From IMG/VR virus record IMGVR_UViG_3300020477_000037, positions 1 through 52,535 of that record: a stretch of DNA of 52,535 bases; one strand, 5' to 3'. Positions 6,778 through 30,491 of the stretch are shown here, piece by piece. A program made the translations under genes and the position numbers. Position 1 is the first letter of the stretch, and every line of letters starts with the position of its first letter. Below the pieces are notes generated by a model that made no database searches, had not been told where the DNA came from, and saw nothing but the letters and a program-made list of their open reading frames with translations. This stretch comes from a virus (Duplodnaviria > Caudoviricetes).

Positions 6778-9700
6778 TGCAACCATTTGCTGATTTTTTA
6801 AAAACTTTCAATCAAAGAGCTAGGAATATAGAGAAGGCTCGTGGTCAATCCCCTGATACTGTGGTTGGTGGTGACCCTGTGATGACAACTAAAGAATCTC
6901 TCATTACAGAGAAAGAAATCCCTAAGTTAAAAGATACTAAACCTAAAGTAAACACACCTAATGTAATGCCGGAGCTTACATTGTATCAACCCCCGGTAGA
7001 TGAAGATTTCTCTTATGACTTTCAAGGAGACATAGATTCTCCTAATGCAAATATTCCTCCTGAAACAGAAACGAAACCACTTATACAATGGGATAAAGAT
7101 ACAACACCATTATCAGAAAGATTTGATTGGAAGATTCCATTGGAAGATGTTGATGATCTGATTGCTATGGGTGCTGTAGGTTTTTGGAAAGATATAGTAG
7201 GTGGTATGGATGTGTATTCTAAGGAAGAGCTACAGGAAAGATTAAAAAATATCGCTGAAGATGCAAGTAGAAATATGGATACATCTGATATGCCCAGTAA
7301 TTTTTGGGAGTTAGGAAGTCTTACCAAAAAAGGTGTAAGAGGCATACTATCAATGTTAGGGCCAGCAGGTGATACAGATAGATTGCAAGAAAATGTTAAC
7401 GAATTCAAAGCTAACTTATCAAAGGAAACACAAGATGCTTTAGAAAGAAACTTTGTTACTCAAGATGCCGAAGGGAATTATCATGTTGGTAATGCCGATA
7501 TCAATACATTACTTGCTATGGTTGCGGTGCAATCCCCAAATATTATAGCAACATTAGGATCGGCTTATATTGGAGGTGCTTTATTAACAAGACTAGCTGG
7601 GATACCGGCAGCTTTAACTCCCAAAGCATTAGCATCTGTTAGAAAAACTGGTTACTTTACATCAGCTATTGGGACTCAATATACCGCAACGGCTCTTTCT
7701 ACATCCAGTCAAGTATATGAATCTTTATCTGAACAACCCGCACATTTATGGCAAGAAAGTCCACTCTATAATCGTGTTATGGATAAGTTATTAAATAATC
7801 CAGAGCATGGAGTTCCCACAGAAGACTATGACAAGCTACATGATTATGCGGTTGAATCAGTATCAAGACAATTAGCCTATGAAGCTGGGATTGTTAGTGG
7901 TGATATTTCTGCTTTAGCCATGACTCCGTTTGCCGGATGGCTTGGTAAAATTATGAGTGGCAAAAAAGTACAATATAATAAAGCATTCTTTAATAAAATA
8001 GGTGCTGTTAAAGAAGGGTTAAAGGGTACTGGTTTAGAAATGGTTGCGGAGGGGATGCAAGAAGGTTTTGCTGAAACTATGACAAGGAATTATTATCTCC
8101 GTGAGGGTGGTCAGCCTGTTAATATTTGGCATAATGTAATTAATGATACTATAACTGGCTCACTTGTATCTGGCCCAACCGCCCTTACTATGACTACTGC
8201 TGTAGCAATTACAGCACCAATACAAATAGATAAGATTAATAAAGAAATTACTAAAGGATTAGAGGGTGAAGGGTTGTTTGATGTTGGATCTACATTAGAT
8301 GAAACTGGACTATCTTATGTTATAAATCAAGACATTAATATAAGTGAGTCCGATAATAAAACATTGCAAGACTTGGTAGATAATGCTGATGAAGTTTTAG
8401 CTAGAGAGCCTATAGCAGAACAAGATGCTGATGGGTCTGATGACCCAAGCATGATAGCAATAGCCAATCAATATAATGTTGTTAGACAAAAAAGAGATGA
8501 TGCTCTAGCAGAACTTGCAAGAAGAACTGATGAAAGAGTTAATGAAACTGAAGAGGAATCAACACAAAGTGCTTTATTAGATCAGCCGGTTGTTCTTGAT
8601 CCGATTATTGTAGAAGCGGAAGACCCGTCTAAGTTTAAGGTTGAAGAAGATGAAGATGGTAAATTTTATATTAATAATCCAGTTACAAAAGAAAGAATGG
8701 AGAAACAATATAATAATTTAAACTCAGCCCAACAAGACGCAAACGAATTGAATAATTTAAATCAAAGGCCGGATGATTTGGAAACTCCTTTTACGGTTTC
8801 TTTTCAAAACCCAGAAACTAGGCAACGAATTGTGGATACTGCAAAAAAATATAAGTATCGACAGGGATCTGGTAGCAAACAAAGACGGGAGGCGTTTGAA
8901 GAGGATCTACAAGTTGGTGAGAACTGGGTTCCAAAAGCAGATGATGATAAGGATATTGTTAAAAGTGTTTACCTTATGTCCTATTATATACATCAACGGC
9001 AGAAATCAGAGAAGAAAAGGGATAAAAAAGTTTCGGATGAGATGCATAGTCTTTTAAATGAAGTTGGATATACGGATGAACAAATTGCTTTTATGGCAAA
9101 TGAAGCTAAACAAGCAATTATTAATAATAAAAAGATTAAATTTTATGATGTTAACCCTAATCTCACAAAAGAGCCGTATGAGTTTACTTGGAAGGGGATA
9201 GAAGATCCAAGTGGGGAGCCTGTCATTTCCACAGATAGTCCTCGTATTATAGATACTCCACAGAAAAAATCTATTTTTAATAGATTTAAAAAATTATGGA
9301 AGCGATTAGATGATAAGAGAGCTTCTGTAAAATTAACTACGGCTGAAAGAATCCGTGAATTATTATCTGAAGGGATTGGTATTAAATTTAAGCCCGGTTT
9401 TAAAACACAGCTAGATCCAACTAACCCAAGAAAGTGGAAGATAAAAAACCTTTCAGATGTTCAAGAGTTAATCCATTTATTTGGATCAGCTTTAAGTGGC
9501 TATCATAAGAGTTTACATACGGCTTATTATCGTGCTGTTAAGGCTGAAAAAATAAAAGGATTACATTTAGATCAAGCAATACTTGGTGAAAATATAGGTG
9601 AGTTTAAAACAGAAAACGAAAAAATTAATGCTATATGGGGGGAGTTTTTAAATCAATATATATATGACAGCCAGACGACAGCAAAGAATTATCCGGCACT

Positions 9701-12700
9701 ATATAAAGAGTTTGTTGCATTTTTAAACAAGAAACCAACCGTTGCTACTTGGGTATTTCAAATGCATTCTGCCGGTCAAAAATGGTATCACGCCTCTGAA
9801 TTAACAAAAGGCTTGTCTCTCATGGTAGGTGGTTTAGGTAAACAGGAAGAGGTGGATCGTAAAATAACAGAGGTTAATACTGTAACAAAAATGGATACAA
9901 TTATTAATAAGGCGTTTGATGCCGGTCATTCTTTAGGTTTGGCAAGAACTTGGATGACTAACGATGGTAAGAAGTTCAAGCTCCACGCACATGAAGATCC
10001 TCAGTTAGCTTACCAGTTAATGTCTGGTGAGGGTTCTAGTATTAGTTATGGATTATCAGGTAACTTTGTAACACCGTTTGATATGAGAATGCGTTTATCT
10101 TTAGATAAGTTAGCTTCACAAATGGGTATTACAACAACGAATTATAGTAGTAAAAAGGGAGCGGAAAGATTAGAAAGATTTTATAACACCATTTTAAAAG
10201 ACTCTGATGGGAAAGATATCACTAGAAGAAAGTCTAAAATGGTTGATAAGTTAGATGATGAGGGTAATGTAGTTAAGGATGAAGATGGGAATGTCATACA
10301 AGAAGTTGAATGGGAATGGGTACCTGTTAAGGCGGGGGATTTTAGAAGTTTAAAGTGGATTCTTTTGCCAATAGAAAATCTCAATGGAAGAAAATCTATA
10401 CTTGGTAAAGAATTAGGTGGTGGTAGATACACGGTTTCGGATGCCAACAAAGATAGTATCAATAAGGATATCACCTATTCAACTATGTTTAGTGCGTATG
10501 CATTAGCTAAAAGAGCCAAAACATTAAAGACTCGTGATAAAGAAAATTTATTTACAGATGAACAGATTAAGGCAATTATTGATGAAGTAGAAAAGCACAT
10601 GAAAAAAAATGACGTTGATGCATACAATGTGTTTGTTAAAGCACATAGAGAGCTAGTTGGGTTTGGTGAAATGTTAGCTGATTATGCAGTTGATGCCGGT
10701 TTAATTTCTCCAGAGGTAAGAGAAAGGTTTAGGATTGAAACTGATTATGTCCCATATATTAGGAAAAGAGATATGGATACTGGGGAGACTCTTCATTCTT
10801 ATAAAACTGGACGCTTAGATTTCTGGCAACCAAAAGCTATGAAAGGTGGGACTCATAGAATAATTGATCCGATTGAAAGTTTAATGAGAAATTATTCTAC
10901 TATAGTTCGATCTGCAAATCGCAACGATGTTATGGTTAAGTTATATGATATGTATCAATATATGTCAGCAAAAGATTTTCCTGAAAAAGGAGCCACAGAT
11001 CCAGTTAATGAATCAGATAATCCTATTACATTTCATGATGAACCGCAAAACAAAGAGGCAATATTTTTATCTAGAAATGAAATTATTCGTGAATTAGATA
11101 AAGACAATATATCTGTTACAGATGCAACTTTATCTAATAAAAATATGAAAGCTATAGAAAAAAAGCTATCTGAACTTGAGTGGGATGTTGGTATTGGTGA
11201 AGTTCTTGAATACAATATGATTGATGTTGATGAGGATGGAATACTTATACATTCTATTGCTAGCGAGAATACACAAAATAAATTTGTTATTTATAAACCT
11301 AATGAAAATTATCAGAATATTAAAGAAGAATATTCAGATAATAAGGTGAAGACAATTCATGATGGCAGGATGGCTCTACAGTCTTTCTTTAGGCCTTCGA
11401 TTGACTCAAGCACAACATATGTGTTTTATAAAAATGGAGAACGTAAGTTTCTAGAGATAAAAGATACAGAGGAAGGCAGGATACTGCAAGATACATTAGA
11501 CTTATTACAGCCGAAGGTTGTTAGGTTTGTTGATAATTGGATGGGTAAGCAAGCTGTAGATAATTTAAAAAGAGCCTACCAATTATTTGGTAAGTTACCA
11601 GCTAAGATCCAGCGTGAAATGATTGTTTTAAGTCCAGACTTTATTATAAGAAACTTTATGAGGGACACTATAGTTTCTGGATTCCAAAGTTCCGCTCGAT
11701 CAAAGCCTTGGCCTATCGTTAGTGCAATGCGTGGATTGAAAATATTCATGTTTGATAAAGAAGCAAGGAATATCATGAATAGTTTCGGTGGTAGTTTCGC
11801 AAGCCAATGGGAGAATCCTTTCGTTTGGTCACAACCTAAAAATGTTAAGGACTTACAAAAACTGATATCTCCAAGAATAATGCAAGATAAAGTTCTTTCC
11901 CCGGTTGCTCTTCTTAGGATGCTCGCTGATTTTGGTAAGATGACTGAGAGTTTATCTAGGATAAGAGAATTTAAAGTTGTCAAAGAAGAGTTGATGAAAG
12001 GTGATAATCTAGCTAGGCTTGGGGATAATGCATCTTTATTAGATAAAATTAAATTTAAAATATGGAGTCCCGTTCCACCTGAATATGCTCAGTTTATACA
12101 AACAGATGAAGATGGTGTTGCTTTTTCAATGAACGAGATAGATGCCACATTGTTGGCTGCTAAAGCTGCCAGAGAAGTATCGGTTGACTTTGGTAAAGGC
12201 GGTTCTAGTAGCTTTATAAGAGGACTAGCAGCTACTATTCCTTTTATGAATGCTAGAATGCAGGGTTGGCTTCAAGCTGGGAAGACATTAAAGAGAAATC
12301 CAGCTTTATTTATGACTCAGTTTTCTATGTATGCTTTAGCTTCTCTTTCAGCTTACGCTTTTACTAAAGAAGAAGGCAAATTAGATGATCGTAAAGAGTG
12401 GGAATTAGATATGTACCATTTTATTCCAGCTAGTATTATACCAGAAGAAGCTAGGGAAATGATGTCTAAGTTATTTCCTTGGGTATATGGCGAAAAAGAT
12501 GCTGATGTTAAGTATTTTAAAATACCAAGAGCTTTTGAGTGGGGGGCTATGACCCGTATTATAGAAGGTTTCTATGATTGGTTTCAAAAAGATTTAAAAC
12601 CGGCAGAGGCAAAAGCTTTATCTCATCTTATTGTTAGGACTATTGGTGATACTTTTTCGCATTCTGGTGCTTCTGGTCTTACACCTGCTTTATATCAAGC

Positions 12701-13619
12701 ATACAATAATTATAATAGTAATATAGATACATTTCTTGACAGGCCAATAGACCCAACAAAAAGTCAAGCTAAACCTATGGAAGATCGTGCCTATTCTACT
12801 ACACCATTATCTATTAGAGCATTAGCTAAAATGGTTGGGATGCCAGCAGCTAAACTTGCTTACTTAAACCATACATTCTTGAGTTCTTTTGGTCAGTTAT
12901 TAGCTTTAATCGCAGACAAAATGCTTTACGATAAGGAATATCCAGATAAACATTTTACATCTTATCCTATATTTAAAACTATCTTTTGGTCTGAGGATGT
13001 TAATTTAAATGCTTCTGTCGATAAAAGTTACAAAACCTTTCTTCATATTGCAAGGGTGAGGGAAACCGTAAAGAGTTTATTTGACGCACAAATATCTGGA
13101 GATAAAGATCTAGAAAAATCTGTAAATCCAAGAAGGCCAGAGTCTTATCATAGGGAACATTTAAAATATTTATATGAAGATGACCCATCTTTTAGTCCTT
13201 ACTTATCCTATTTAGCACAGAACAATGGCTATAGATTTAAAACTAGAATTGATCGTGCATATAAAGAAACAAGAAAGTTTTTTAACGATAAAAAGGAAGA
13301 GCGTAAACTTATTCAAACAATGGATAAACCTACAGAATACTTGCAAACATTAATAGAAGAAAGCTATAGTCAGCAAAACAAGAAAGCAGAAGAATTTATT
13401 AAGGTTGTGGAAAAGGAATTATCTACTGTTAAAGATTATGAAGAGACTGCATATAAAACAGATCCTTTTGTTAAGCCATTGATAGAAGGCGATATAGGCG
13501 ATATGGTTGCAAAAGTAGTTGAATCTATTTTAACCAAACCACGACAAATTTCTAATTTGATGAAGAGTGCGTTAGGTAATATGATTAGAGATACAACTAA
13601 CGAAGAAAACCAACCATGA
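6777..13619 (+). CDS. Giant internal virion / polyvalent protein with C-terminal LPD38-like domain
   Basis: 2280 aa; motifs YVPYIR, PDFIIRNFMRD, VDFGKGG, IPFMNARMQG and YFKIPRAFEWG resemble LPD38-type ejection proteins. Confidence 0.7.
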   Translation: MQPFADFLKTFNQRARNIEKARGQSPDTVVGGDPVMTTKESLITEKEIPKLKDTKPKVNTPNVMPELTLYQPPVDEDFSYDFQGDIDSPNANIPPETETKPLIQWDKDTTPLSERFDWKIPLEDVDDLIAMGAVGFWKDIVGGMDVYSKEELQERLKNIAEDASRNMDTSDMPSNFWELGSLTKKGVRGILSMLGPAGDTDRLQENVNEFKANLSKETQDALERNFVTQDAEGNYHVGNADINTLLAMVAVQSPNIIATLGSAYIGGALLTRLAGIPAALTPKALASVRKTGYFTSAIGTQYTATALSTSSQVYESLSEQPAHLWQESPLYNRVMDKLLNNPEHGVPTEDYDKLHDYAVESVSRQLAYEAGIVSGDISALAMTPFAGWLGKIMSGKKVQYNKAFFNKIGAVKEGLKGTGLEMVAEGMQEGFAETMTRNYYLREGGQPVNIWHNVINDTITGSLVSGPTALTMTTAVAITAPIQIDKINKEITKGLEGEGLFDVGSTLDETGLSYVINQDINISESDNKTLQDLVDNADEVLAREPIAEQDADGSDDPSMIAIANQYNVVRQKRDDALAELARRTDERVNETEEESTQSALLDQPVVLDPIIVEAEDPSKFKVEEDEDGKFYINNPVTKERMEKQYNNLNSAQQDANELNNLNQRPDDLETPFTVSFQNPETRQRIVDTAKKYKYRQGSGSKQRREAFEEDLQVGENWVPKADDDKDIVKSVYLMSYYIHQRQKSEKKRDKKVSDEMHSLLNEVGYTDEQIAFMANEAKQAIINNKKIKFYDVNPNLTKEPYEFTWKGIEDPSGEPVISTDSPRIIDTPQKKSIFNRFKKLWKRLDDKRASVKLTTAERIRELLSEGIGIKFKPGFKTQLDPTNPRKWKIKNLSDVQELIHLFGSALSGYHKSLHTAYYRAVKAEKIKGLHLDQAILGENIGEFKTENEKINAIWGEFLNQYIYDSQTTAKNYPALYKEFVAFLNKKPTVATWVFQMHSAGQKWYHASELTKGLSLMVGGLGKQEEVDRKITEVNTVTKMDTIINKAFDAGHSLGLARTWMTNDGKKFKLHAHEDPQLAYQLMSGEGSSISYGLSGNFVTPFDMRMRLSLDKLASQMGITTTNYSSKKGAERLERFYNTILKDSDGKDITRRKSKMVDKLDDEGNVVKDEDGNVIQEVEWEWVPVKAGDFRSLKWILLPIENLNGRKSILGKELGGGRYTVSDANKDSINKDITYSTMFSAYALAKRAKTLKTRDKENLFTDEQIKAIIDEVEKHMKKNDVDAYNVFVKAHRELVGFGEMLADYAVDAGLISPEVRERFRIETDYVPYIRKRDMDTGETLHSYKTGRLDFWQPKAMKGGTHRIIDPIESLMRNYSTIVRSANRNDVMVKLYDMYQYMSAKDFPEKGATDPVNESDNPITFHDEPQNKEAIFLSRNEIIRELDKDNISVTDATLSNKNMKAIEKKLSELEWDVGIGEVLEYNMIDVDEDGILIHSIASENTQNKFVIYKPNENYQNIKEEYSDNKVKTIHDGRMALQSFFRPSIDSSTTYVFYKNGERKFLEIKDTEEGRILQDTLDLLQPKVVRFVDNWMGKQAVDNLKRAYQLFGKLPAKIQREMIVLSPDFIIRNFMRDTIVSGFQSSARSKPWPIVSAMRGLKIFMFDKEARNIMNSFGGSFASQWENPFVWSQPKNVKDLQKLISPRIMQDKVLSPVALLRMLADFGKMTESLSRIREFKVVKEELMKGDNLARLGDNASLLDKIKFKIWSPVPPEYAQFIQTDEDGVAFSMNEIDATLLAAKAAREVSVDFGKGGSSSFIRGLAATIPFMNARMQGWLQAGKTLKRNPALFMTQFSMYALASLSAYAFTKEEGKLDDRKEWELDMYHFIPASIIPEEAREMMSKLFPWVYGEKDADVKYFKIPRAFEWGAMTRIIEGFYDWFQKDLKPAEAKALSHLIVRTIGDTFSHSGASGLTPALYQAYNNYNSNIDTFLDRPIDPTKSQAKPMEDRAYSTTPLSIRALAKMVGMPAAKLAYLNHTFLSSFGQLLALIADKMLYDKEYPDKHFTSYPIFKTIFWSEDVNLNASVDKSYKTFLHIARVRETVKSLFDAQISGDKDLEKSVNPRRPESYHREHLKYLYEDDPSFSPYLSYLAQNNGYRFKTRIDRAYKETRKFFNDKKEERKLIQTMDKPTEYLQTLIEESYSQQNKKAEEFIKVVEKELSTVKDYEETAYKTDPFVKPLIEGDIGDMVAKVVESILTKPRQISNLMKSALGNMIRDTTNEENQP

Positions 13620-13858
13620 TTGGAGTATTAATGAATAGCAATAAGTTTAAAGAATATATAACAAATAAAAATTCTTTAATAAAAAGCTATAAGAATTTTC
13701 TTAATGTTATAGCGGATTGTTATTGTCATGAAGATATTATCCCAGATGAAAAAATTCGGACACATCTCCATGTTATAAACACAATGCATTTAAATGCGAG
13801 ACAAGTGGATATAATGGGTGATATAATAAGGAGTGAATTAAAGCCGGAGTTAAACTGA
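13616..13858 (+). CDS. Hypothetical protein
   Basis: ORF coupled to both neighbours (ATGA and TGATG overlaps). Confidence 0.5.
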   Translation: MIGVLMNSNKFKEYITNKNSLIKSYKNFLNVIADCYCHEDIIPDEKIRTHLHVINTMHLNARQVDIMGDIIRSELKPELN

Positions 13859-14721
13859 TGCGTGGGATTGTAGATAAACATACTCCAGATGGAATTAGAA
13901 TTTGGCAAATACATTATACGGCAGATCCAGATAAAGACCCAGAGACAAAAGAAGGTGGAGAGTGGTTAGCTAATGAGCTAATGGGATATCCGGGTGGGAT
14001 GGCTTCTCCTAAATGGAAACAGGAGATGGAGGTTGACTTTGACTCTGTAAGTGGACAGCTATTATTCCCAAGGATGGAGGAGTGGAAAGATAAGCTGATG
14101 ATCCCACGATTCGATGTGCCGGATAGCTGGACTTTGTATGGCGGATTTGACTACGCTAGTCGTGGTGTATCCGCCTTCGTTGTTTTCGCCAAAGGAAAGA
14201 ATACAGATGACTATTATGCTATCTGGGAATTCTATGAAAAAAATAGCGGATATTTAAATACGATTAATGCTATCAAATCCTGTCCTTATTATGATAAGTT
14301 GGAATGGATTGTTGCAGACCCGCAGATATGGGCTTCTAATCAGCAAAAACAGGGGTCTGATGAGATGGTTAGTATCGCCCAATTGTTTGGGGAACAAGGG
14401 GTTCACTTCTTAAAAGGATCAAAGGGTGGTGACATTGCCGTAGGTGAAAGAGTTAATCAAGAGCTATGGAATTTTCAGGAGAATGAAGTTCCTAAGTTCA
14501 GGTTATTTGATAACTGCGATAAACTCTGGTGGGAGATGACAAGATTAAGATTTTCTGATTGGAGAAATTCTACGGCTCTCTCAAGGAACGCTAAAGAGTC
14601 TCTTATAGAAAAAGATAATCATGCTTGGGATTGCTTTAAGTACTTTCTGAGAATGATAGAAACAAATTGGATGAGTAGTAATATAGATTCATTTAATCCA
14701 TCTCAGCATATTATTGGATAG
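13858..14721 (+). CDS. terL: Terminase large subunit, C-terminal part (lid/linker plus RNase H-like nuclease domain) as a separate gene
   Basis: WKQEMEVDF lid motif; YGGFDY...SAFVVF, IVADP and EKDNHAWDCFKY carry the acidic nuclease motifs; no Walker A/B. Confidence 0.85.
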   Translation: MRGIVDKHTPDGIRIWQIHYTADPDKDPETKEGGEWLANELMGYPGGMASPKWKQEMEVDFDSVSGQLLFPRMEEWKDKLMIPRFDVPDSWTLYGGFDYASRGVSAFVVFAKGKNTDDYYAIWEFYEKNSGYLNTINAIKSCPYYDKLEWIVADPQIWASNQQKQGSDEMVSIAQLFGEQGVHFLKGSKGGDIAVGERVNQELWNFQENEVPKFRLFDNCDKLWWEMTRLRFSDWRNSTALSRNAKESLIEKDNHAWDCFKYFLRMIETNWMSSNIDSFNPSQHIIG

Positions 14722-14733
14722 GAGATTTTATGA

Positions 14734-15066
14734 ATGGAAAATGTTTCGACTCTTATTTCAGACCTAGGAGTACCAATTACGGTAGCTTTAATGGCGGGGG
14801 CAGGTCTGTGGTTTACAGTAAAATGGCTGATGAATATTCTAATGAAGCGGTTAGACGAGTTGGAGCAGATCAGTCGAGACACCGCAGAAGAAACATTGAG
14901 ATCTATCCAAAAGGAAGAATCAGATTCAAAAGAAATACTGGTAAGATTAATAGATAGAATAAGGGCATTACAAACAGATGTTATTAGAATTGATACAATG
15001 TTTAGAATTAAATATAAGCTACCAATCGATGAACGCAGAATCTCTAGAAATCAGAAAGAGGATTAG
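14734..15066 (+). CDS. Membrane protein with coiled coil (holin-like)
   Basis: TM LGVPITVALMAGAGLWFTV followed by coiled coil LIDRIRALQTDVIRID; AGGAG SD. Confidence 0.55.
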   Translation: MENVSTLISDLGVPITVALMAGAGLWFTVKWLMNILMKRLDELEQISRDTAEETLRSIQKEESDSKEILVRLIDRIRALQTDVIRIDTMFRIKYKLPIDERRISRNQKED

Positions 15067-15136
15067 CGGGGTAGAGCAATGGTAGCTCATCGGGTTCATT
15101 ACCCGAAGGTAGGGGGTTCGATTCCCTCCCCCGCAA
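15065..15136 (+). tRNA. tRNA-Met(CAT), initiator (fMet) type, with atypical U37
   Basis: Acceptor (A)GCGGGG/CCCCGC(A) with 1:72 mismatch; anticodon stem TCGGG/CCCGA with three G-C pairs; loop TTCATTA; T-arm GGGGG-TTCGATT-CCCTC; followed by CCT rather than CCA. Confidence 0.85.
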
Positions 15137-15302
15137 CCTCTGATGAGTATAAAAATTGGGTGTATAAATATAATTCCTGTGATTGTTTAGCTAAAACAGA
15201 GTGTATATATGAAGGTTATTCATCGTGTAGAAGGGAATATCTTCAGGAAGAAATACCAGATTGGTATTGTGACCACCCATTTTATAAGGAACAATTAAAA
15301 AG

Positions 15303-15896
15303 ATGGAAATAATTACTAAGGATGCGGGTGGTAATCAATTCATAGCTGTTACAGAATATAAACCATGCCGGAAATTAACAGCCTGTTTATATCTAGGTAA
15401 CGATGAGTTCCCTAGATCTTATGTAGTGGTAGCATCAGAAATACCACATACCAGACGGGCTATTATTAATGGGCAGGAGAGTGAGTCCCATGACCCTGAG
15501 TATGTAGTCTTTGATGAATTTTCAGGAAGGCTTTCTCCTTATTTTATAGATGAATTGAAGCGATTTCTAGGAAGGAATTATGTCGAGAAAGTTATCTGTA
15601 TATCTTCCAATGAAGACCTAAGAACAAAGATTAGAAGAGAATGTAATATAAAACCAATATATATCGAGAATAAGAAACGAGATGATTGTGCTGTTATATT
15701 GCAAGATTGGTTTAAGAGATTAAGAGATAATGGAGAACCCACATTAAAGATAAGAGAGAATTGTATAGAGGCTAGGAGTTTCAACTATTTACCAGCTAGG
15801 CTTTCTGTGGTATATTTACTTGAGTACTTTGAAAGACAAAGAGGTAAGAAAGTATTTCTTCCAAAGGTACAAAAATTAAGAGGCGGATATTCATAA
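15303..15896 (+). CDS. Hypothetical protein; possible degenerate terminase nuclease-like (RNase H fold) paralog
   Basis: Pattern SYVVVASE...YVVFDEF...helix...VEKVICI...LKIRENC...LSVVYLL parallels the TerL nuclease layout but lacks the catalytic Asp motifs. Confidence 0.4.
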   Translation: MEIITKDAGGNQFIAVTEYKPCRKLTACLYLGNDEFPRSYVVVASEIPHTRRAIINGQESESHDPEYVVFDEFSGRLSPYFIDELKRFLGRNYVEKVICISSNEDLRTKIRRECNIKPIYIENKKRDDCAVILQDWFKRLRDNGEPTLKIRENCIEARSFNYLPARLSVVYLLEYFERQRGKKVFLPKVQKLRGGYS

Positions 15897-16009
15897 TGAA
15901 ACTAATGGATGTTGTTAAGGTAGTATGTGTCATTGTTATTTTTTTTTCTTTAATGCTTCTTCTTACTCACTTTGTAGGGAGTCAAGTTAATTTCCAATCT
16001 CATGGGTAA
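15896..16009 (+). CDS. Small single-TM peptide, 37 aa (not in ORF track)
   Basis: MKLMDVVKVVCVIVIFFSLMLLLTHFVGSQVNFQSHG; TAATG overlap with the upstream gene. Confidence 0.45.
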   Translation: MKLMDVVKVVCVIVIFFSLMLLLTHFVGSQVNFQSHG

Positions 16010-16014
16010 TAATA

Positions 16015-16305
16015 ATGGATGACATAGAAAATATAGTTGTAAAAATAAAAAGTGCTGAAGAAAAACTAGGTCAACTTGTTCCAAAAAACTTTTTCAGTTG
16101 GGAAATTTACATGGTTAATAATACTGAAGTATTGAGAGATGTTCTTGACCTCGTTAGATCGACAGCAAATATAATCAGGAAATGTGCTTGTACTGAATGT
16201 AATATTGTCTTTCAAAGTCACCACGCACTACAACGCCACATGACCTCCAATCATAAGGAATCGAGCGATGAAAGGGTTAACAGAAAAACAGGAAAAGTTC
16301 ATTGA
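16015..16305 (+). CDS. C2H2 zinc-finger protein
   Basis: CTECNIVFQSHHALQRHMTSNH matches C-x2-C-x12-H-x4-H. Confidence 0.65.
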   Translation: MDDIENIVVKIKSAEEKLGQLVPKNFFSWEIYMVNNTEVLRDVLDLVRSTANIIRKCACTECNIVFQSHHALQRHMTSNHKESSDERVNRKTGKVH

Positions 16306-16885
16306 TGAATACCTTAAAACCCCAGATGATAAGTCGGGTAGTGCTAAACGTGCGGGTTTTTCTCATCCAGAAGTTACGGCAAATAAATTACTACGCACCG
16401 ATAAAATTATTAAGGCTATAAAAGAAAAGCAGAGCAAGATATCAGAGGCAGAGGGGGTAACGGCAGATTGGTTAGCGAAATATTATAAAGCAATTATAGA
16501 AACACCAATTACAAACATATGTGATTGGGATAAAGTCAGCGGGTTAAATACAAGACCATCATCTCAGATAGACCAGATGTCTGCCTTTGCTATTAAGGAA
16601 GCATCGGAGGGAAGACCTAGAGAAGGTGAAGACCGTAAAGTTTTTCTAAAGATGGAAAGCAAATTAGAAGCAATGTCGGCCTTACGCAGTATGTTGGGAA
16701 TAGATGCACCGAAACGGCAAGAGGTTAAGGCTACTACTGAAACTTACAATATGACGGGTACTAATGAAGAAATCGCAAGCTCCCTCATTGGAACGCTTGA
16801 GAGCCTTATTACAAAATCCGATTATACAGGGGAAAATTTCGGAGTTACCTCATCAGGAAATCCTGAAAATAGAAAGACAAATTAG
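16268..16885 (+). CDS. terS: Terminase small subunit
   Basis: LTEKQEKFIDEYL...SAKRAGFS N-terminal HTH and KMESKLEAMSALRSMLG, typical of the Terminase_2 family. Confidence 0.88.
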   Translation: MKGLTEKQEKFIDEYLKTPDDKSGSAKRAGFSHPEVTANKLLRTDKIIKAIKEKQSKISEAEGVTADWLAKYYKAIIETPITNICDWDKVSGLNTRPSSQIDQMSAFAIKEASEGRPREGEDRKVFLKMESKLEAMSALRSMLGIDAPKRQEVKATTETYNMTGTNEEIASSLIGTLESLITKSDYTGENFGVTSSGNPENRKTN

Positions 16886-17492
16886 CCTACTGTCTTTCAG
16901 GGAATCTCCTGAGAACTTTATATTTTCTGGGGTTCTATTAACTCGTGATGAAAGAGATCCTGACAGCCCAGTAAAAGCATTTTGTGATAAGGACTATTTA
17001 AAAGCTACACTAAAAGCGATTCATGAGTCAAAGATAATTTTTATCCCCAAGTCTAGACAGGTTCAATGCACTTGGTTGGTATGTGCTTATTGTTTATGGC
17101 TTGGGATGTTCCGTCCCCACCAAATGATATTCGTACAGAGTAAGAAGGAAGAAGACTCTGCCAACCTCGTATTCAACCAGAAGTGGACTAAAGGAAGAAT
17201 CTCTTTTATGTACCATCATCTTCCTGATTGGCTTAAAGTTGCCTGTCCGGCTGAAGGAGCTTACGCTAAACTCAATTTCGACAATGGCTCCATGATTTGG
17301 GGAGTGCCGGAGGGTGGAGATGTTGTCCGGCAATATACTGTCAGCCTACTCTTTGCTGATGAGGCAGGGTTTCAGCCTGAGTTTGAGAACGCCTACCAAA
17401 GTTGTAAACCTATGAGCCAAAAGATTGTAGCTGTAAGCTCTGCTTGCAGTAGTACTTACTTTGCACAGATTGTTCAATCTGCAAATGAGTAA
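16764..17492 (+). CDS. terL: Terminase large subunit, N-terminal ATPase domain as a separate gene
   Basis: Walker A-like IPKSRQVQCTW, Walker B LLFADEAGF, coupling motif IVAVSSA; stops about 16 aa later with no nuclease domain. Confidence 0.85.
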   Translation: MKKSQAPSLERLRALLQNPIIQGKISELPHQEILKIERQISLLSFRESPENFIFSGVLLTRDERDPDSPVKAFCDKDYLKATLKAIHESKIIFIPKSRQVQCTWLVCAYCLWLGMFRPHQMIFVQSKKEEDSANLVFNQKWTKGRISFMYHHLPDWLKVACPAEGAYAKLNFDNGSMIWGVPEGGDVVRQYTVSLLFADEAGFQPEFENAYQSCKPMSQKIVAVSSACSSTYFAQIVQSANE

Positions 17493-17493
17493 A

Positions 17494-17606
17494 TCCCCTA
17501 GTCTTTGACACAAAATATTGTAACCCTAAAAGAAATTGAGTTGATCAATCACTCGTAAACCATTAGGTTTATATTTTAAGACAGGGTCACCAGACCTTTT
17601 CGGGGA
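17494..17606 (-). ncRNA. Candidate multi-stem structured RNA / complex terminator where the two arms converge
   Basis: Nested minus-strand pairings TCCCC/GGGGA, GGTCT/AGACT and GTGACCCTG/TAGGGTTAC, with inner hairpin TAAACC-TAAT-GGTTTA. Confidence 0.35.
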
Positions 17607-17610
17607 ACCT

Positions 17611-18078
17611 TTATTGAAATTTATTTAATTGATTTTCAGGAACGAAGTATGCCGGTGGTCTACCATTTCCTTTATCGGTAAACTCACCAACATTCCTAGC
17701 ATCCTCTCCTGAAATCCACCCAACTATATTAAAGTTTGGTGTTCTACCTTTCACTAAAACAAAACGATATTCTACTGGGGTATCAGGTCTAACGATCAGC
17801 CCATTATTTTTATTAGTTGTTTTTATTTCTACAGGATTTCCGTTAATTATAAAATCTGGATGTCCCATTTTATTAACAGAGCCATCCCAATATATACCTT
17901 TAAACTTAGCAAAAGCTAATTCACCACAAGCACCCTGTATATTATCCTCCCAAGTATGTCCCTTATACCCATACGCATCCTTCATATTTTTACGCATAGA
18001 TTCAATGCACCGAAGGACTCCTATTTCAGATGCCATCTTTACTTCATACCAAGTTAGTTTAATAATAATCTCTGCCAA
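17611..18078 (-). CDS. Phage hypothetical protein, PD-(D/E)xK-like nuclease fold
   Basis: GACGELAFAK...HPDF...VEIKT motif pattern. Confidence 0.55.
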   Translation of the reverse strand: MAEIIIKLTWYEVKMASEIGVLRCIESMRKNMKDAYGYKGHTWEDNIQGACGELAFAKFKGIYWDGSVNKMGHPDFIINGNPVEIKTTNKNNGLIVRPDTPVEYRFVLVKGRTPNFNIVGWISGEDARNVGEFTDKGNGRPPAYFVPENQLNKFQ

Positions 18079-18371
18079 TAATAAAATTCTCCATCTCTAT
18101 TATTTTTTTTATATTCAGTATCCTCGTTAAGTTCTTCAGTATCCTCTTCTTCTATTTCTTCTTCCCAATCCTCTCCCATCTCCTCTTCCATTTGTTTTTC
18201 AAATAAAGCGTCTGCTTCTAATGCTTTTTCTACTTTATATTCATCAATCTTATCTTGCATATGGTTGGTTGCAAGGCCACCCATTAAACCACCTAATGCG
18301 TTGGCGATTAAACCTTCACCTAATCCACCGCACCCCCCAAGTAAAAACAATAAAGGTATTAATTTTATCAT
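18054..18371 (-). CDS. Glycine-zipper lipoprotein with acidic tail
   Basis: Lipobox LGGC, GLIANALGGLMGG zipper, E/D-rich C-terminus. Confidence 0.6.
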   Translation of the reverse strand: MIKLIPLLFLLGGCGGLGEGLIANALGGLMGGLATNHMQDKIDEYKVEKALEADALFEKQMEEEMGEDWEEEIEEEDTEELNEDTEYKKNNRDGEFYYWQRLLLN

Positions 18372-18418
18372 GATATGCTCCTATAAGGACACAGAATGGA
18401 CTATTTCATGTCCGGTTT

Positions 18419-18658
18419 TTACTGCCTCTTGTTATCTATACCAGTAAATTCTAAAGCCAAACCAGAAACAGATGCTCCTACAGATAATCTAAGCTCAATT
18501 ATTGCCCCCGCAATACCAATCCTAGCATTTATATTTTGCAAAGGATTTATCCCTAGAGACTCTAATTGTTTTCTATATAAATCCATAGTGGTTCGCTGTT
18601 TTGAATTCGCTGTTTTATCAAAAGATATAAACGTAGAATGCTCTTCATGTTCAGGCAT
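18419..18658 (-). CDS. Hypothetical protein
   Basis: TAATG-coupled to the upstream lipoprotein gene. Confidence 0.45.
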   Translation of the reverse strand: MPEHEEHSTFISFDKTANSKQRTTMDLYRKQLESLGINPLQNINARIGIAGAIIELRLSVGASVSGLALEFTGIDNKRQ

Positions 18659-19269
18659 TAAAAGCTCCCTAATTTATAAGAAATATGATTCTTTCTTTCA
18701 TCCCAATGCTTTGAGATTTCTTCTTCCATTTCCTTATGAAGTTTATCCGCACGTTTTCTAACCCTCTGTTTGATATCTTCAGATAGGGTAAGATAACTTG
18801 ACAAACTTTTCTTAACCTTATCCAGATCGAGTTTAGCTAAAGAGAACAACTCATTCCTTTGAGGATGCTCCCAATGATCAATAACAACAACACCATGATG
18901 CATTGAGTTTGTAAAAGTTTTCATAACTGTTTCGCTTAATTGTTCCTCCTCTGAATTCATAAAGTCTCTAGCTGTAGTACTACCCATATAATCTTTTAAT
19001 AAAGACCTTGTATAAAATTCTATAACTTTAGCGAGATCGTTTCTAGCTCTATCATCTGCGACAATCCTTTGCAGAGAGAAATTTCGGATACCAGAAGCGG
19101 AGCCAATCCCGTAGAACACCTTACCTTCTTCATCGGAAAAGGCTCCACTACCTTTCATTACCCAATCGGGAGGGCTAACAGATTGGAGTAACGGAGCGAC
19201 CCTCTGTGTCTCCTGAGTTGTCGAGCATGACGTTAGAACCAGAAGTAAAATGCCTAATATGGTTCTCAT
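18658..19269 (-). CDS. LPP20-family lipoprotein
   Basis: Lipobox LTSC; PDWV...FYGIGSA...ADDRARNDLAK resembles LPP20-type domains. Confidence 0.7.
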   Translation of the reverse strand: MRTILGILLLVLTSCSTTQETQRVAPLLQSVSPPDWVMKGSGAFSDEEGKVFYGIGSASGIRNFSLQRIVADDRARNDLAKVIEFYTRSLLKDYMGSTTARDFMNSEEEQLSETVMKTFTNSMHHGVVVIDHWEHPQRNELFSLAKLDLDKVKKSLSSYLTLSEDIKQRVRKRADKLHKEMEEEISKHWDERKNHISYKLGSF

Positions 19270-19492
19270 CGTTATCCTCTACATTAGGGTTAATATCTAT
19301 ACAATTATCATGTCCATCAAATGCATAAGACGGATGGTCTGTTACCCTTGTATGAATTTTCACCGCCTTATCAATCAAGTCTTCTGGGAATTGTGTTAGA
19401 ACAATATACAAAAGACCACCAGAAAATACAAATGCAATAGCAAGCGGGGCTAGGAACTTCTTATAGCTAACCATCAAAGCCACCAGTATCAA
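19175..19492 (-). CDS. Membrane-anchored hypothetical protein; likely start ATG 19474
   Basis: N-terminal TM FLAPLAIAFVFSGGLLYIVL. Confidence 0.45.
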   Translation of the reverse strand: MILVALMVSYKKFLAPLAIAFVFSGGLLYIVLTQFPEDLIDKAVKIHTRVTDHPSYAFDGHDNCIDINPNVEDNDENHIRHFTSGSNVMLDNSGDTEGRSVTPIC

Positions 19493-19694
19493 ATGCTTCT
19501 AATGCCTCAATATTTTCTTTGGCCTGTGCTATACCAGAGATATGTTTATGTGCTTCTTCTGTATAATTCGTATGTTCTCCAATACCTACAGGATTGTTTG
19601 TAAGAATTTCCAACGCTAAATTGTGTTCTTTTATTTCAGATTTATATCTCTGTAATAAAGCGTGATAAAAAGTTTTACTATATTTACCAACCAT
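19467..19694 (-). CDS. Small helical phage protein (NPVGIGEH motif)
   Basis: Helix-NPVGIGEH-helix pattern I recall from marine phages; AAGGAG SD. Confidence 0.55.
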   Translation of the reverse strand: MVGKYSKTFYHALLQRYKSEIKEHNLALEILTNNPVGIGEHTNYTEEAHKHISGIAQAKENIEALEAFDTGGFDG

Positions 19695-19708
19695 AATAAT
19701 ACTCCTTC

Positions 19709-19879
19709 CTAGTGATTAGGATTTGGTTCTATTTGATCATCACGGCCCTCATAATATGGAGGCGTACCACCAACATGGATATTATTTTTTTCTTGAACAA
19801 TATCCATCTCTTCTGCCGGCGTACCAAATAAAATAAAGAATAAAAAATAAACACTTACTGTAATTTCAATAATTCCCAT
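19709..19879 (-). CDS. Small TM protein, 56 aa (not in ORF track)
   Basis: MGIIEITVSVYFLFFILFGTPAEEMDIV...; AGGAG SD upstream. Confidence 0.5.
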   Translation of the reverse strand: MGIIEITVSVYFLFFILFGTPAEEMDIVQEKNNIHVGGTPPYYEGRDDQIEPNPNH

Positions 19880-19921
19880 AATAAACTCCTGTAATTATTA
19901 TATTGTTTTTATGAAGCCAAA

Positions 19922-19989
19922 GGTCTACCTGAGAATGTCAGGGAGGAGGAGGCCGGATGATGGCACAAACCTAACAGCCCAAGTAGACC
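19922..19989 (-). ncRNA. Candidate sRNA: long hairpin with an anti-Shine-Dalgarno loop (CCUCCUCCUCCC)
   Basis: Minus-strand stems GGTCTACTTGGG/CTCAGGTAGACC (12 bp) and TGTTAGG/CCTGACA (7 bp) with G-U pairs; loop contains CCTCCTCCTC. Confidence 0.5.
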
Positions 19990-20001
19990 AATAGCAAAAT
20001 G

Positions 20002-20217
20002 TTATTGACTTACTTGCACATCATTATTAGTTGTTCTTACTTCTTCAATTAATGTTTGCAATGCATCTACTTGTTTTTGAGTTGCATTGCGTTTACCAGT
20101 AAGATTACGCCATATCCTAGAGAACTGAGTATTACCGGCAACGAGTTGTTCTTTTTCCATACCTTTGTAATTAATTGGGATGTTTACAAACCGGAATTCC
20201 ATTGGCTTACCTTTCAT
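20002..20217 (-). CDS. Hypothetical protein
   Basis: ORF on the coding strand of the arm. Confidence 0.45.
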   Translation of the reverse strand: MKGKPMEFRFVNIPINYKGMEKEQLVAGNTQFSRIWRNLTGKRNATQKQVDALQTLIEEVRTTNNDVQVSQ

Positions 20218-20383
20218 TAGAGTTTAATAAATCGGCTTTTACCACTAAAAGCAATGGTGACTAGGTTGTATATTCTGATGGAGAACGCATAACCAACACG
20301 TTGGACAGACCCGTAGTAATCCATTTTACATCCCCACTAGCCGGAAGGTAGATGCAAAAACCTGCCCACTTTCGCACCGTCAA

Positions 20384-20767
20384 CTAGAAATCAAAGTCTT
20401 TCTTTTTCTTACCACTTCCGTTCTCCCCAGACCCATTGGCACGTTCCGCAAACTGAACCTTATTCGCCCTGATCTGGACTTTCTGATTAGTCTGACCGTC
20501 CTTCTCCCACCTTTGTTGCTCAAGCTCTCCGTAGACAAGGACTTTCACTCCCTTAGTTAAACGGTTCATAACATTAGATGAATATTCTTTATCCATCCAC
20601 CAATCCACATCCAAATAATGTGGCTTACTCACCCACTCTCCAGTCTTATCCTTATAGCTTTTGTTGTGACCGATAGAAAACTTAGCGACAATATTCTTAC
20701 CGATCTCTTTTGATTCAGCATCTCTGGTTAAGTTGCCGGACAGCCTTACTTCATTAACATTAAACAT
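20384..20767 (-). CDS. ssb: Single-stranded DNA-binding protein
   Basis: NEVRLSGNLTRDAE, KGVKVLVYGELEQQRWEKDGQ, C-terminal DFDF. Confidence 0.92.
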   Translation of the reverse strand: MFNVNEVRLSGNLTRDAESKEIGKNIVAKFSIGHNKSYKDKTGEWVSKPHYLDVDWWMDKEYSSNVMNRLTKGVKVLVYGELEQQRWEKDGQTNQKVQIRANKVQFAERANGSGENGSGKKKKDFDF

Positions 20768-20781
20768 AATAATCTTTCCTC

Positions 20782-21672
20782 TCAATTAATAATGTTATAG
20801 ATTTTATCCACCATTACTTCAGACCATTCAGACGTTTTCATTTGTGCGTATATCTTAATTTTTTCTAAAGCTTCATCTGGTGGCGGTGAATTTGGGTTAT
20901 CCTCGTCAATCCTATAGGCTTGCTCTACGAGCTTACTTTTCACCAAGTCAGGTGAGTCTTGAGAGTTTCCTATGTACGTCCTAATTGCTTCTAACTTATC
21001 CCCCCTTGCTTTCTTAAAACCATTTTCTTTTACAGGTCTTTGGGTTCCTGTATCACCATTCTGGAAATCGTTAAAGTCTGTATCTTCTCCAGTTGGCAGA
21101 ACAAACTTCTTTAGGTAGGCATACTTAATTGCGTAGGATACAGCCTTCCCTATTCCTTTATCGTTTTTATCCCAACCATAACCATAGGAATAAACTGTAT
21201 CTGTGTCGGAAGGGTTGTCAGCATTAATAAATTTAACGCCAACCTTAACAACGGACATAATGTAACCCTTGTCCATTTGTTTTATATCATGGTCTTCTAT
21301 GGACGGTGAAACAGTAATCCCGGCATCAACCATAGCCCCATGTAATACATTAGCGACAGCATCATGGCTTGCAAAACTGTAACCCATTTGGTGTTTAGCA
21401 TCTTCAGCAACACCCCTAACCTTATCCATGACCTGTAATATTTTTTGCTGAAGATTTGGGCTTGATATTTTCCCCTCTAAAACAAGATCATCTTCTATAG
21501 CATCTAACCTAGCTTGTAAAACAGGGATTGTTTCATATGAATTTTTAAACAACGTAAGCGAATCTAATAATTTTTGAAAATTAACCTTTTGTTCTTTACT
21601 TAAAAGCAATGGCTCTAATTCTTCCTGTGTTTCTTCCTCTACTACCTCTTTCTTTTTTCTACCCATCGGCAA
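20782..21672 (-). CDS. ERF-family ssDNA annealing protein
   Basis: GYGWDKNDKGIGKAVSYAIKYAYLKKFVLPTGED ERF motif. Confidence 0.88.
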   Translation of the reverse strand: MPMGRKKKEVVEEETQEELEPLLLSKEQKVNFQKLLDSLTLFKNSYETIPVLQARLDAIEDDLVLEGKISSPNLQQKILQVMDKVRGVAEDAKHQMGYSFASHDAVANVLHGAMVDAGITVSPSIEDHDIKQMDKGYIMSVVKVGVKFINADNPSDTDTVYSYGYGWDKNDKGIGKAVSYAIKYAYLKKFVLPTGEDTDFNDFQNGDTGTQRPVKENGFKKARGDKLEAIRTYIGNSQDSPDLVKSKLVEQAYRIDEDNPNSPPPDEALEKIKIYAQMKTSEWSEVMVDKIYNIIN

Positions 21673-21764
21673 GTCCTTTATAATATTGTTAATAATTTAA
21701 TAGTTTTTTGATTACGATATAACCCTCCCATTAAAGATTTCAACTGCATAAGCAACAATCGGCT

Positions 21765-22214
21765 CTAATCCTTTTTTTTTAATTCCACAAAATCATTCTT
21801 AGGGATCTTGTATGTTAATCCACTTGGTATTACATATAAATCTTTTAGCGGTTCTGTAATTTTTACATATCTGTAAGGCTTGCTCCCAACTATAACGCAT
21901 GGTAAGGAATTAAGATGGTAATTAATATTTTCGCCAATCCTATGGGACAACCAGTACTCTGCCATCGTATCTTTTTGTTCAAAGAATTCGTTATCATAAA
22001 GAAAATACTGAGAAACCTTTCCATTTTTAATCCCCACACCCTCTAAAAAACAATCTTGGTTAGAGAATATAGTCCCGCCCCACATATATAACTTAATTTC
22101 AAAGTTAGGGAATCTATCGCTGAACTCTTTAAAACATTTCAGTCCATTCTTTCTGACAGATTCATTGGATACTGGGCTGAAGTCTACATTCGTTGTATTA
22201 TTTTTTGAAGTCAT
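21765..22214 (-). CDS. Hypothetical protein
   Basis: 149-aa ORF overlapping the end of the YqaJ gene. Confidence 0.5.
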   Translation of the reverse strand: MTSKNNTTNVDFSPVSNESVRKNGLKCFKEFSDRFPNFEIKLYMWGGTIFSNQDCFLEGVGIKNGKVSQYFLYDNEFFEQKDTMAEYWLSHRIGENINYHLNSLPCVIVGSKPYRYVKITEPLKDLYVIPSGLTYKIPKNDFVELKKKD

Positions 22215-23271: not shown

Positions 23272-23275
23272 GGTC

Positions 23276-25099: not shown

Positions 25100-25800
25100 A
25101 TCACCATCCTTTCCTGAACCTTCGTTGATTGTTTAGCTTGATTGAGATACTTATCAAAATGTTTACTGGCATAATACACATCAGGGTCAATATAATTTCT
25201 CATCTTCTCGTTATCTCTCCACTCTTTTGTTTTAAATTCATTAACTGTTTGGAAATCCTCAACCTCATAACCATCCCTTAGTCTTGCGGATATTGTTTTT
25301 AAAATTGGAGCGGTAACCTTCCTTCTTTTTCCGGCACAATTATTAAAGTGATCAATGATTTTTTGTGCCTTGATTTTTAGTTCTGGATTATCCTCTCTAT
25401 CTTTTATAATAGTATTATTATATATATTATATATATCCGTTTTCACTTTCTCCCCATCAAAAGACATAAGCCCCTTGTCTATAAGGACTTGGATTGCTCC
25501 TTCCAACTCATTCATATATTCTGGATTATCTATATGGAGTTCAGTACAAATCCAACTAGGATCGTTAGGTAAGAAGCCGTTATTCTTTATATATAATAAG
25601 ACCATAAAGTGCAGATAAAACTTAATTATATCTGCGAGCTTATTAACTTCATAATTATCTATAAGATCTAAAGGAAACTTAACCCATTGTAATCGTTTGT
25701 TTTTCTTAGGATCTCTAGTAAAATTATAATATTGATCAACCAAAGGGATAATTAAAAGTTTGACATTATCTTTTTTGTGGTGTAAGTTATCATTTCTCAT
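25096..25800 (-). CDS. Putative replication initiator with phage conserved C-terminal domain
   Basis: IIDHFN...ISARLRDGY...KTKEW...MRNYIDP...HFDKYLNQ; lies directly upstream of the helicase. Confidence 0.7.
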   Translation of the reverse strand: MRNDNLHHKKDNVKLLIIPLVDQYYNFTRDPKKNKRLQWVKFPLDLIDNYEVNKLADIIKFYLHFMVLLYIKNNGFLPNDPSWICTELHIDNPEYMNELEGAIQVLIDKGLMSFDGEKVKTDIYNIYNNTIIKDREDNPELKIKAQKIIDHFNNCAGKRRKVTAPILKTISARLRDGYEVEDFQTVNEFKTKEWRDNEKMRNYIDPDVYYASKHFDKYLNQAKQSTKVQERMVI

Positions 25801-27388: not shown

Positions 27389-27389
27389 G

Positions 27390-27982: not shown

Positions 27983-28025
27983 TTTTAGCTCCTTTTATTT
28001 CCTTTCACAAGATTTTATTGCATGA

Positions 28026-28373: not shown

Positions 28374-28416
28374 AATTAGTCTCCATTTTTTTTAGGTTTA
28401 AACTTAAAGATAATTA

Positions 28417-28740: not shown

Positions 28741-28769
28741 ATTACCTCCTTTATTATTTTTGAATTATT

Positions 28770-29157: not shown

Positions 29158-29184
29158 TACTTCTTTGTCCTCCTATATTTTAAA

Positions 29185-30479: not shown

Positions 30480-30491
30480 ATCCTAGAATAA

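Follow-up and report, generated by a model that had tools for sequence, protein, structure and literature searches.

How can a large terminase subunit (TerL) work when its two parts are encoded by separate genes that stand in the reverse of their order in the protein? This question is raised by the IMG/VR virus record IMGVR_UViG_3300020477_000037, which was analysed over its whole length of 52,535 bp (hereafter, the window). TerL is treated as a single two-domain polypeptide, and the cross-talk between its ATPase and its nuclease is central to the start, the course and the end of packaging. In the window, the gene for the nuclease-bearing C-terminal part of TerL (C-half) lies upstream of the gene for the ATPase core (N-half), with 2042 nt between them. 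Both are open reading frames (ORFs) on the plus strand with their own start and stop codons (Table 1), and the reversed pair of TerL halves reported in the initial annotation was confirmed. We conclude that the reversed split TerL is a real and conserved feature of a marine phage clade, and we put the probability that this large terminase is a two-chain enzyme assembled in trans at roughly 80%.

The N-half was assigned to TerL by its match to phrog_5989 (E = 5.7e-13) and by tblastn matches to T4-type TerL genes in 1427 phage records. It aligned to the first 210 residues of the 539-aa TerL of a related locus (L007) with 31% identity, and its family profile matched residues 140–296 of T4 gp17 (E = 1e-14). 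Residues K96, S97, R98, D199 and E200 were invariant among 59 ATPase sequences, with D199-E200 as Walker B, and S225 of the coupling motif VSS was invariant among 26 sequences. The P-loop is deviant (K96-S-R-Q...T103). The lysine of the classical Walker A GK[ST] is absent from it, and an invariant Lys precedes instead. This pattern, K-S-R-Q-x-x-x-[ST], is family-wide and is found in fused members too; it resembles the deviant Walker A of lambda gpA.

The C-half matched phrog_5653, "terminase large subunit" (E = 3.8e-4), and also, in MW202795, the C-terminal region of a 504-aa protein annotated as large terminase. Its family profile matched the nuclease domain of SPP1 G2P (E = 2e-8) and D6E TerL (E = 3.7e-5), and the motifs GxDxG, ADxS and DKDNHxxDA were matched in these profile alignments. 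The profile check that had been proposed for each half was therefore answered by T4 gp17 for the N-half and by SPP1 G2P for the C-half. Residues of approximately 13–20 of the C-half correspond to the last strand of the ATPase sheet and those of approximately 21–75 to the lid and linker, and the remainder is an RNase H-like nuclease. In the N-terminal region, G3, G12, H19, Y20, A22, D23, K26, G33 and W36 were invariant in 12 sequences. The acidic triad D98, D154 and D258 was invariant among 56 nuclease sequences, and the C-half itself therefore looks nuclease-competent.

The position of the break was mapped on P0039, a fused relative of 530 aa. N-half residues 60–238 aligned to P0039 residues 29–207 (41% identity, E = 4e-37), and C-half residues 1–264 aligned to P0039 residues 219–480 (33% identity, E = 4e-48). 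The halves are collinear with P0039, with no duplication and no missing part. The N-half ends at about P0039 residue 211, which is 17 residues past its VSS coupling motif, and the C-half starts at residue 219; about 11 P0039 residues are unaccounted for. In the AlphaFold model of P0039, with a predicted local distance difference test score (pLDDT) of 92.2, the coupling-motif strand (190–195) and a helix (201–206) precede the break, strands 216–236 and the lid helices follow it, and the nuclease begins at about residue 314. The break falls in the loop between helix 201–206 and strands 216–236. The alignments and the model agree with the initial annotation in placing the break after the coupling motif and inside the predicted ATPase fold, so that the C-half gene opens with a part of the ATPase domain. 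When the halves were aligned globally to distant full-length TerLs by MAFFT, the C-half was misplaced, and its placement was resolved by P0039. BLASTP of the C-half against the L007 TerL gave no match.

Rejoining of the halves was considered next to this map. The reversed gene order rules out rescue by read-through, and the approximately 11 unaccounted residues leave no room for intein halves. Rfam searches returned the tRNA only, over the whole window at gathering scores and over 13000–18500 at E <= 1, and no known intron family was found. The earlier view that frameshifting, cis-splicing and an intein are excluded was upheld on these grounds; for frameshifting and cis-splicing, the gene order itself, C-half before N-half, supports the exclusion.

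Both halves appear to be in use. The ratio of nonsynonymous to synonymous substitution rates (dN/dS) was 0.03–0.09 for both halves in 14 of 16 close-pair comparisons within the reversed clade, and the synonymous rate (dS) was saturated in the other two. Together with the invariant catalytic residues, these values indicate from sequence that both halves are functional genes under purifying selection, as the initial description of two intact halves implied.

The N-half and C-half were also submitted to complex prediction. The interaction prediction score from aligned errors (ipSAE) was 0.88 in all three runs, compared to 0.01 for the best of three controls. The pair passed the mark set for this score, which 58 of 80 solved complexes and 2 of 110 mismatched pairs also reach. 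At least 83% of the contacts were common to the runs, and the pLDDT of the partner was 81. The tightest predicted contacts joined ATPase residues 91–97, which form the strand that runs into the P-loop, to C-half residues 14–20, and the pairing extended over ATPase residues 91–100. Further contacts were predicted between ATPase residues 226–242 and C-half residues 54–64. The interface is predicted to be a strand complementation that rebuilds the ATPase sheet, and the modelled halves are compatible with the normal TerL fold.

The collinear break, the conserved order, the selection values and the predicted complex are consistent with the trans-assembled motor that had been suggested for this locus. 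In such a motor, the N-half would be the ATPase core and extend as far as the helix that follows the coupling motif. The C-half would add what this core lacks, the final strand of the ATPase sheet and the lid, together with the RNase H-like nuclease. The two proteins would be expressed from separate start codons, the C-half start overlapping the stop of an 80-aa ORF and the N-half starting within the end of the small terminase subunit gene (terS). They would bind 1:1 by strand complementation and rebuild an ordinary TerL fold, and the heterodimer would then act with TerS and the portal like a normal TerL protomer. Since the ATPase fold would take one strand and its lid from the nuclease-bearing chain, the two proteins look like obligate 1:1 partners, which argues against freely separable control of cutting. 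Such control, proposed earlier as a benefit of the split, found no support and seems unlikely. The other benefit proposed, evasion of Avs defences, found no support either.

The two starts were inspected at the nucleotide level. The C-half ATG and the TGA that ends the 80-aa ORF overlap (cTGATG), and GGAG lies 8 nt upstream of that ATG. The overlap suggests translational coupling of the 80-aa ORF and the C-half. In the related locus L009, the counterpart of the 80-aa ORF has 62 aa and lies in the same place. The N-half start lies in the +1 frame relative to terS. The initial annotation had listed terS as one of the genes separating the halves; terS does lie upstream of the ATPase gene, but the ATPase ORF overlaps its end by 122 nt. 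The overlap may represent simple double coding, or translation of the two genes may be coupled there. An overlap of approximately 90–180 nt was also seen in 34 related loci, with the +1 frame in all 19 loci worked by hand. At the protein level, the N-terminus that the overlap encodes is conserved, and tblastn matches begin at query residues 4–20 in many loci.

The occurrence of the same split and order was surveyed among relatives. A profile scan of IMG/VR gave 187 relatives, and 80 of these were kept and classified by script; the tallies refer to contigs and not to lineages, with many near-duplicates. The reversed order was found in 34 of the 80 loci in addition to the window itself. The same break in normal order was found in 28 loci and a fused TerL of 526–610 aa in 12. 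In the other six, the contig end cuts off before the ATPase is visible, and three of these can be placed in the reversed clade, either by identity or because they have protein X, a product of the region between the halves that is described below. Protein searches also gave stand-alone C-halves in 12 clusters (281–302 aa, down to 37% identity) and stand-alone N-halves in 26 clusters (186–268 aa). Among the best 150 representatives from 1.84 billion proteins searched, 94 were shorter than 300 aa, 3 had 300–440 aa and 53 were longer than 440 aa, and truncated gene calls may account for some of the short ones.

Trees were built from 56 rows for the nuclease part and 59 rows for the ATPase part, and their roots were not inferred. 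In both trees, the reversed forms stood on one side of a branch, with a Shimodaira–Hasegawa-like approximate likelihood ratio test (SH-aLRT) value of 99 each. This topology supports a single origin of the reversed order in one marine clade. Fused and normal-order split forms were intermixed on the trees, with at least four changes of state. The break is probably old and is widespread in this TerL family, with the two genes adjacent in normal order in many relatives. One marine clade would then have permuted the genes to C-half, X, terS and N-half, and would have gained X. Tandem duplication followed by loss was considered as the source of the permutation; no remnant was found and X is unlike the C-half in sequence, and it remains conjecture.

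Programmed frameshifting was rejected for the normal-order splits. The frame change varies by lineage (+1, -1, or an in-frame stop in L057), L046 has a start-stop overlap, and whole genes are inserted at the break in several loci. By these features, the normal-order splits are real gene pairs and not frameshift sites. In L046 (5240–5420), a TGA stop overlaps a TTG start (TTGA), and the fused sister L045 (4440–4620) keeps a Met at that place; the sister pair suggests a recent fusion or fission. The break is often occupied by other genes between the TerL halves (L043, L047, L067, L074 and L081). Small CxxC/Zn-ribbon ORFs occur there, such as one of 55 aa in L067, and inserts of 1.2–2 kb in L074 and L081 code for proteins of 247–273 aa and a membrane-like ORF. 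The inserted genes may be mobile or selfish genes behind the split.

Misassembly of the window was excluded, as the same order occurs in the 34 other IMG/VR contigs and in contigs that tile the region. In four other runs, which belong to three studies, contigs cover 13000–18200 in the same order; the tiles overlap, none spans the whole, and one of the three studies includes a possible source sample. Run X3 covers 13000–14821 and 14800–16953 with zero differences, and run X7 covers 16382–18062 with approximately 96% identity. A contig of the X7 run (approximately 94% identical) skips 150 nt in 15865–16016, between X and the zinc-finger ORF, as strain-level variation.

The 110-aa ORF, the tRNA, the zinc-finger ORF and terS that had been listed between the halves are all present, but the list missed protein X, of 197 aa. 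The AlphaFold2 model of X has a pLDDT of 81.7 and an RNase H-like fold. By VIA-align, X matched D6E TerL (Z = 11.9), the SPP1 G2P nuclease (11.2), PhiV-1 TerL (11.2), G20c (10.8), T4 (10.1) and P22 (10.1). The 11 best chains, with Z scores of 10.1–11.9, included eight phage TerL or nuclease-domain chains and two herpesvirus terminase nucleases, and resolvases were close behind (canarypox, Z = 10.2; RuvC, Z = 9.3). The top Foldseek match in the PDB was PhiV-1 TerL (E = 3.4e-5). Foldseek against BFVD gave 53 matches at E <= 1e-3, and the named ones were mostly TerL. In the ESM Atlas, template modelling (TM) scores were 0.65–0.70, and the aligned part was PF17289 in four of eight rows and PF22530 (T7-type terminase RNase H-like) in one. 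Roseophage SIO1 gp2 was also seen as a structural neighbour of X.

In sequence, X matched no Pfam or PHROG family at E <= 0.1, and it showed no profile similarity to the C-half family. Its hidden Markov model had matches in the window and in each of the 36 loci of the reversed clade where the region is covered, and in no other locus searched. The dN/dS of X was 0.05–0.18 in 5 of 8 pairs with computable dS. Among its acidic residues, read without a residue-level structural superposition, D34 and E72 are invariant and E104 and E156 are nearly so, and the window and L009 have another residue in place of the Asp of ARDC. By its predicted structure, X is a stand-alone terminase-type RNase H-fold protein; it may cut DNA during packaging, resolve branched DNA or have a regulatory role. 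Tentatively, and with the odds against it, X may be a third subunit of the large terminase in this marine podovirus-like clade. The enzyme would then consist of an ATPase core, a fold-completing nuclease chain and X gained with the permutation, with two nucleases dividing the work. The division could be between the initiation cut and the headful or termination cut, or between cutting and debranching. If this is true, TerL could be studied as naturally separable modules.

Other explanations of the locus were weighed against the two-chain enzyme. The halves could act separately, the N-half as a phi29-like packaging ATPase that can do without a nuclease partner and the C-half (or X) as a free-standing nuclease for cutting concatemers, with no stable complex between them. 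Stand-alone terminase-nuclease-like proteins of approximately 200 aa do exist in other viruses, and the two TerL genes are non-adjacent and translated from different places of the operon. However, the C-half keeps approximately 75 N-terminal residues that form an ATPase strand and the lid in the fused relative and are highly conserved, and the complex model pairs exactly that strand with the Walker-A strand; separate action is therefore unlikely. We find it quite doubtful that X is the working cutter of the reversed clade with the C-half mainly a donor of the strand and lid, its nuclease serving DNA gripping or regulation, or that the two nucleases split the initiation and termination cuts. 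The predicted terminase nuclease fold of X, its purifying selection, its strict co-occurrence with the reversed order and its location shortly before terS, from which no more than one small ORF separates it, all speak for such a role. Nevertheless, D98, D154 and D258 of the C-half are kept and aligned with the acidic motifs of the SPP1 nuclease, X has no sequence homology to the C-half family or any Pfam family, its conserved ARDC acid is replaced in the window and L009, and RuvC-type resolvases score nearly as well as terminases (Z of 9.3–10.2 vs 10.1–11.9).

Rejoining by an undescribed trans-splicing intron or split intein would be indifferent to gene order, and both an intron-split terL (PMC12880540, PMC13729910) and a split-intein terminase (PMC2677866) are documented. 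It is nonetheless very improbable here. The Rfam search of the region gave the tRNA only, each ORF begins and ends with codons of its own, and the approximately 11 unaccounted residues compare with intein parts of 88–105 and 33–54 residues reported in PMC2677866. An artefact or decay, that is, a misassembly or dead TerL fragments with a working copy elsewhere, is hardly credible. The record was assembled from a metagenome and lacks end repeats, but the same order was found in 34 contigs from many metagenomes and in tiling contigs from three studies, dN/dS was below 0.1 wherever computable, the catalytic residues do not vary, and the search for another TerL found none. The last of these results comes from four Pfam models (PF03237, PF17289, PF03354 and PF04466) searched over the whole record and PHROG scans of 38 ORFs; the Pfam searches returned nothing, the halves included, and are therefore only weak evidence against another TerL.

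Several points count against the two-chain enzyme itself. The ipSAE is a measure of model confidence, and the halves of a split gene can pass by their likeness to solved full-length TerLs; the alignments supplied to the complex prediction also lay outside the calibration of the tool. The synthesis and binding of the two proteins are thus predicted. The Pfam scan gave no TerL family for either half, and the identification came from PHROGs, profile-to-PDB matches and the fused relative. Some normal-order splits could be assembly frameshifts, and L084 has a second break within the nuclease gene. Finally, the record has no end repeats and is broken within the tail-fibre ORF, and a few bases or genes could be missing.

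The two-chain TerL was compared to known systems. One-chain TerLs (T4 gp17, SPP1 G2P, D6E and P0039) have the same ATPase and nuclease motifs and the same predicted fold, but they are single polypeptides, whereas TerL is not encoded as one polypeptide in the window and 34 related loci. The normal-order relatives (e.g., L046, L048 and L067) have the same break and domain content, and their C-half start overlaps or closely follows the N-half stop. They differ from the window in that the N-half precedes the C-half and X is absent. Aeh1 NrdA is a phage enzyme that is split by a homing endonuclease gene and works as a non-covalent assembly. The locus resembles it in that an essential enzyme is divided where a break is tolerated, in some cases with a small gene placed there, and would be reassembled from fragments. 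However, the enzyme is a different one, and a homing endonuclease was not identified at the break in the window.

A two-gene TerL (ATPase and nuclease) beside terS is reported as typical of most cluster AY Arthrobacter phages in PMC11920828 and PMC12820723, and the earlier remark on bipartite TerL in actinophages was right for this cluster. In the annotation of BillyTP (PP978841), TerL genes 2 and 3 follow terS, with 359 aa and then 198 aa. The window is like cluster AY in having the ATPase and nuclease as separate genes near terS. In AY phages, the two genes follow each other directly in normal order, whereas in the window the order is reversed, the pair is separated by four genes and a tRNA, and the region holds an additional nuclease-fold gene. 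The AY feature of an ATPase gene directly followed by the nuclease gene is absent from the window and present in the 28 normal-order loci. The break of the window lies inside the predicted ATPase fold. A comparison of the family profiles with BillyTP gp2 and gp3 by hhalign gave a probability below 1%, with low power from a single sequence on one side.

Intron-split terL genes, such as the Jug phage and Twort genes that carry group I introns, are described in PMC12880540 and PMC13729910, and the split-intein terminase belongs to a "fractured genes" locus from Lake Gatun in PMC2677866. The pieces of those genes are collinear and spliced, whereas the window has no known intron RNA, no intein-sized extension and a permuted order. 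In the open-access PMC and bioRxiv literature, no permuted or reversed TerL, no break in the ATPase fold and no added terminase-type nuclease gene was found described. Candidate reports that proved to concern other genes or inteins were set aside (PMC10580990, PMC9004378, PMC7824862, PMC12210895, PMC7156551 and 10.1101/2025.01.02.630785). Within that literature, the reversed order, the break within the ATPase fold and X appear to be new, and the two-gene TerL itself was already annotated in cluster AY.

A natural and conserved split within the ATPase fold means that the motor appears to tolerate and maintain a non-covalent assembly. The two-chain TerL would offer an experimental system in which labelling, mutation or titration could be applied to one chain at a time. 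A family with fused, split and permuted states is furthermore a case for studying the fragmentation of essential enzymes. The co-occurring nuclease-fold gene suggests that some phage packaging modules hold more parts than annotated. As the Pfam TerL models miss both halves, TerL-based detection, taxonomy and completeness tools could miscount such phages.

Over 35 loci, the operon order was C-half, 0–4 small ORFs, X, sometimes a small ORF, terS and N-half. TerS lies directly upstream of the N-half, which keeps TerL beside the small terminase subunit in the packaging module, and the ORF at the terS position was PF03592 in all four other clade members tested. The 110-aa ORF, which the initial annotation called a membrane gene, had no homologue at any other locus surveyed and is not conserved in the clade. 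The tRNA was specific to the window, and was not found in the seven other loci scanned. Among the 35 loci, the zinc-finger motif was seen in the window and L009 only.

Table 1. Positions of the TerL halves, the genes around them and other genes of the window.
Feature	Position	Strand	Match or remark
Open ORF entered by the record start	1–909		
2280-aa ORF	6777–13619	+	Directly upstream of the packaging genes; weak phrog_18222 match only, function not assigned
80-aa ORF preceding the C-half	13616–13858	+	Without Pfam or PHROG family match
TerL C-half, 287 aa	13858–14721	+	PHROG, MW202795 TerL, profile-to-PDB, P0039 alignment
110-aa ORF	14734–15066	+	phrog_18771, family without assigned function, E = 1.7e-10
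tRNA-Met (CAT)	15065–15138	+	Found by Rfam
Protein X, 197 aa	15303–15896	+	Predicted terminase-type RNase H fold
C2H2 zinc-finger ORF, 96 aa	16015–16305	+	PF12756, E = 4e-5, below the Pfam cut-off
terS, 205 aa	16268–16885	+	PF03592, E = 7.3e-18; phrog_51, E = 1.3e-19
TerL N-half, additional strand conserved E (ASCE) ATPase core, 242 aa	16764–17492	+	PHROG, tblastn, profile-to-PDB, P0039 alignment
155-aa gene convergent on the N-half	17611–18078	-	phrog_18407, family without assigned function
Minus-strand block	17611–32634	-	Primase/helicase, RecE-like exonuclease, Erf, single-stranded DNA-binding protein
Late genes	~33.4 kb to record end and on to 17.5 kb	+	Portal, head, tail, fibre and packaging genes
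Three ORFs (243, 214 and 176 aa)	34723–36663		Directly upstream of the portal gene; without PHROG family
Portal	36664–38757	+	Late block
Major head protein	40133–41017	+	Late block
1336-aa tail-fibre ORF	48527–52534	+	Runs off the record end

The sequencing runs that hold the record sequence are marine metagenomes. End repeats were not found in the record, and its CheckV completeness is 100%. By arithmetic on the ORF coordinates, the frames of the tail-fibre ORF and of the ORF at the record start are incompatible when the record ends are abutted. The contig was therefore probably broken in the repetitive fibre gene and is probably not a closed circle, although its completeness is estimated as 100%.

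The nearest cultured relatives by the capsid have Pelagibacter and OM43 as hosts, and the closest was Pelagibacter phage HTVC106P (41% identity), in which an ordinary TerL adjoins the portal gene. In the window, the slot upstream of the portal is filled by ORFs without a PHROG family. The packaging genes of the reversed clade therefore seem to be relocated or replaced compared to its capsid relatives. Judged by its position, the 2280-aa protein may be a giant internal virion or ejection protein, and the C-terminal part of its ORF is kept in L009. In L009, the gene convergent on the ATPase half codes for 93 aa (4369–4650, minus strand), with an HNH-like Cys/His pattern judged by eye.

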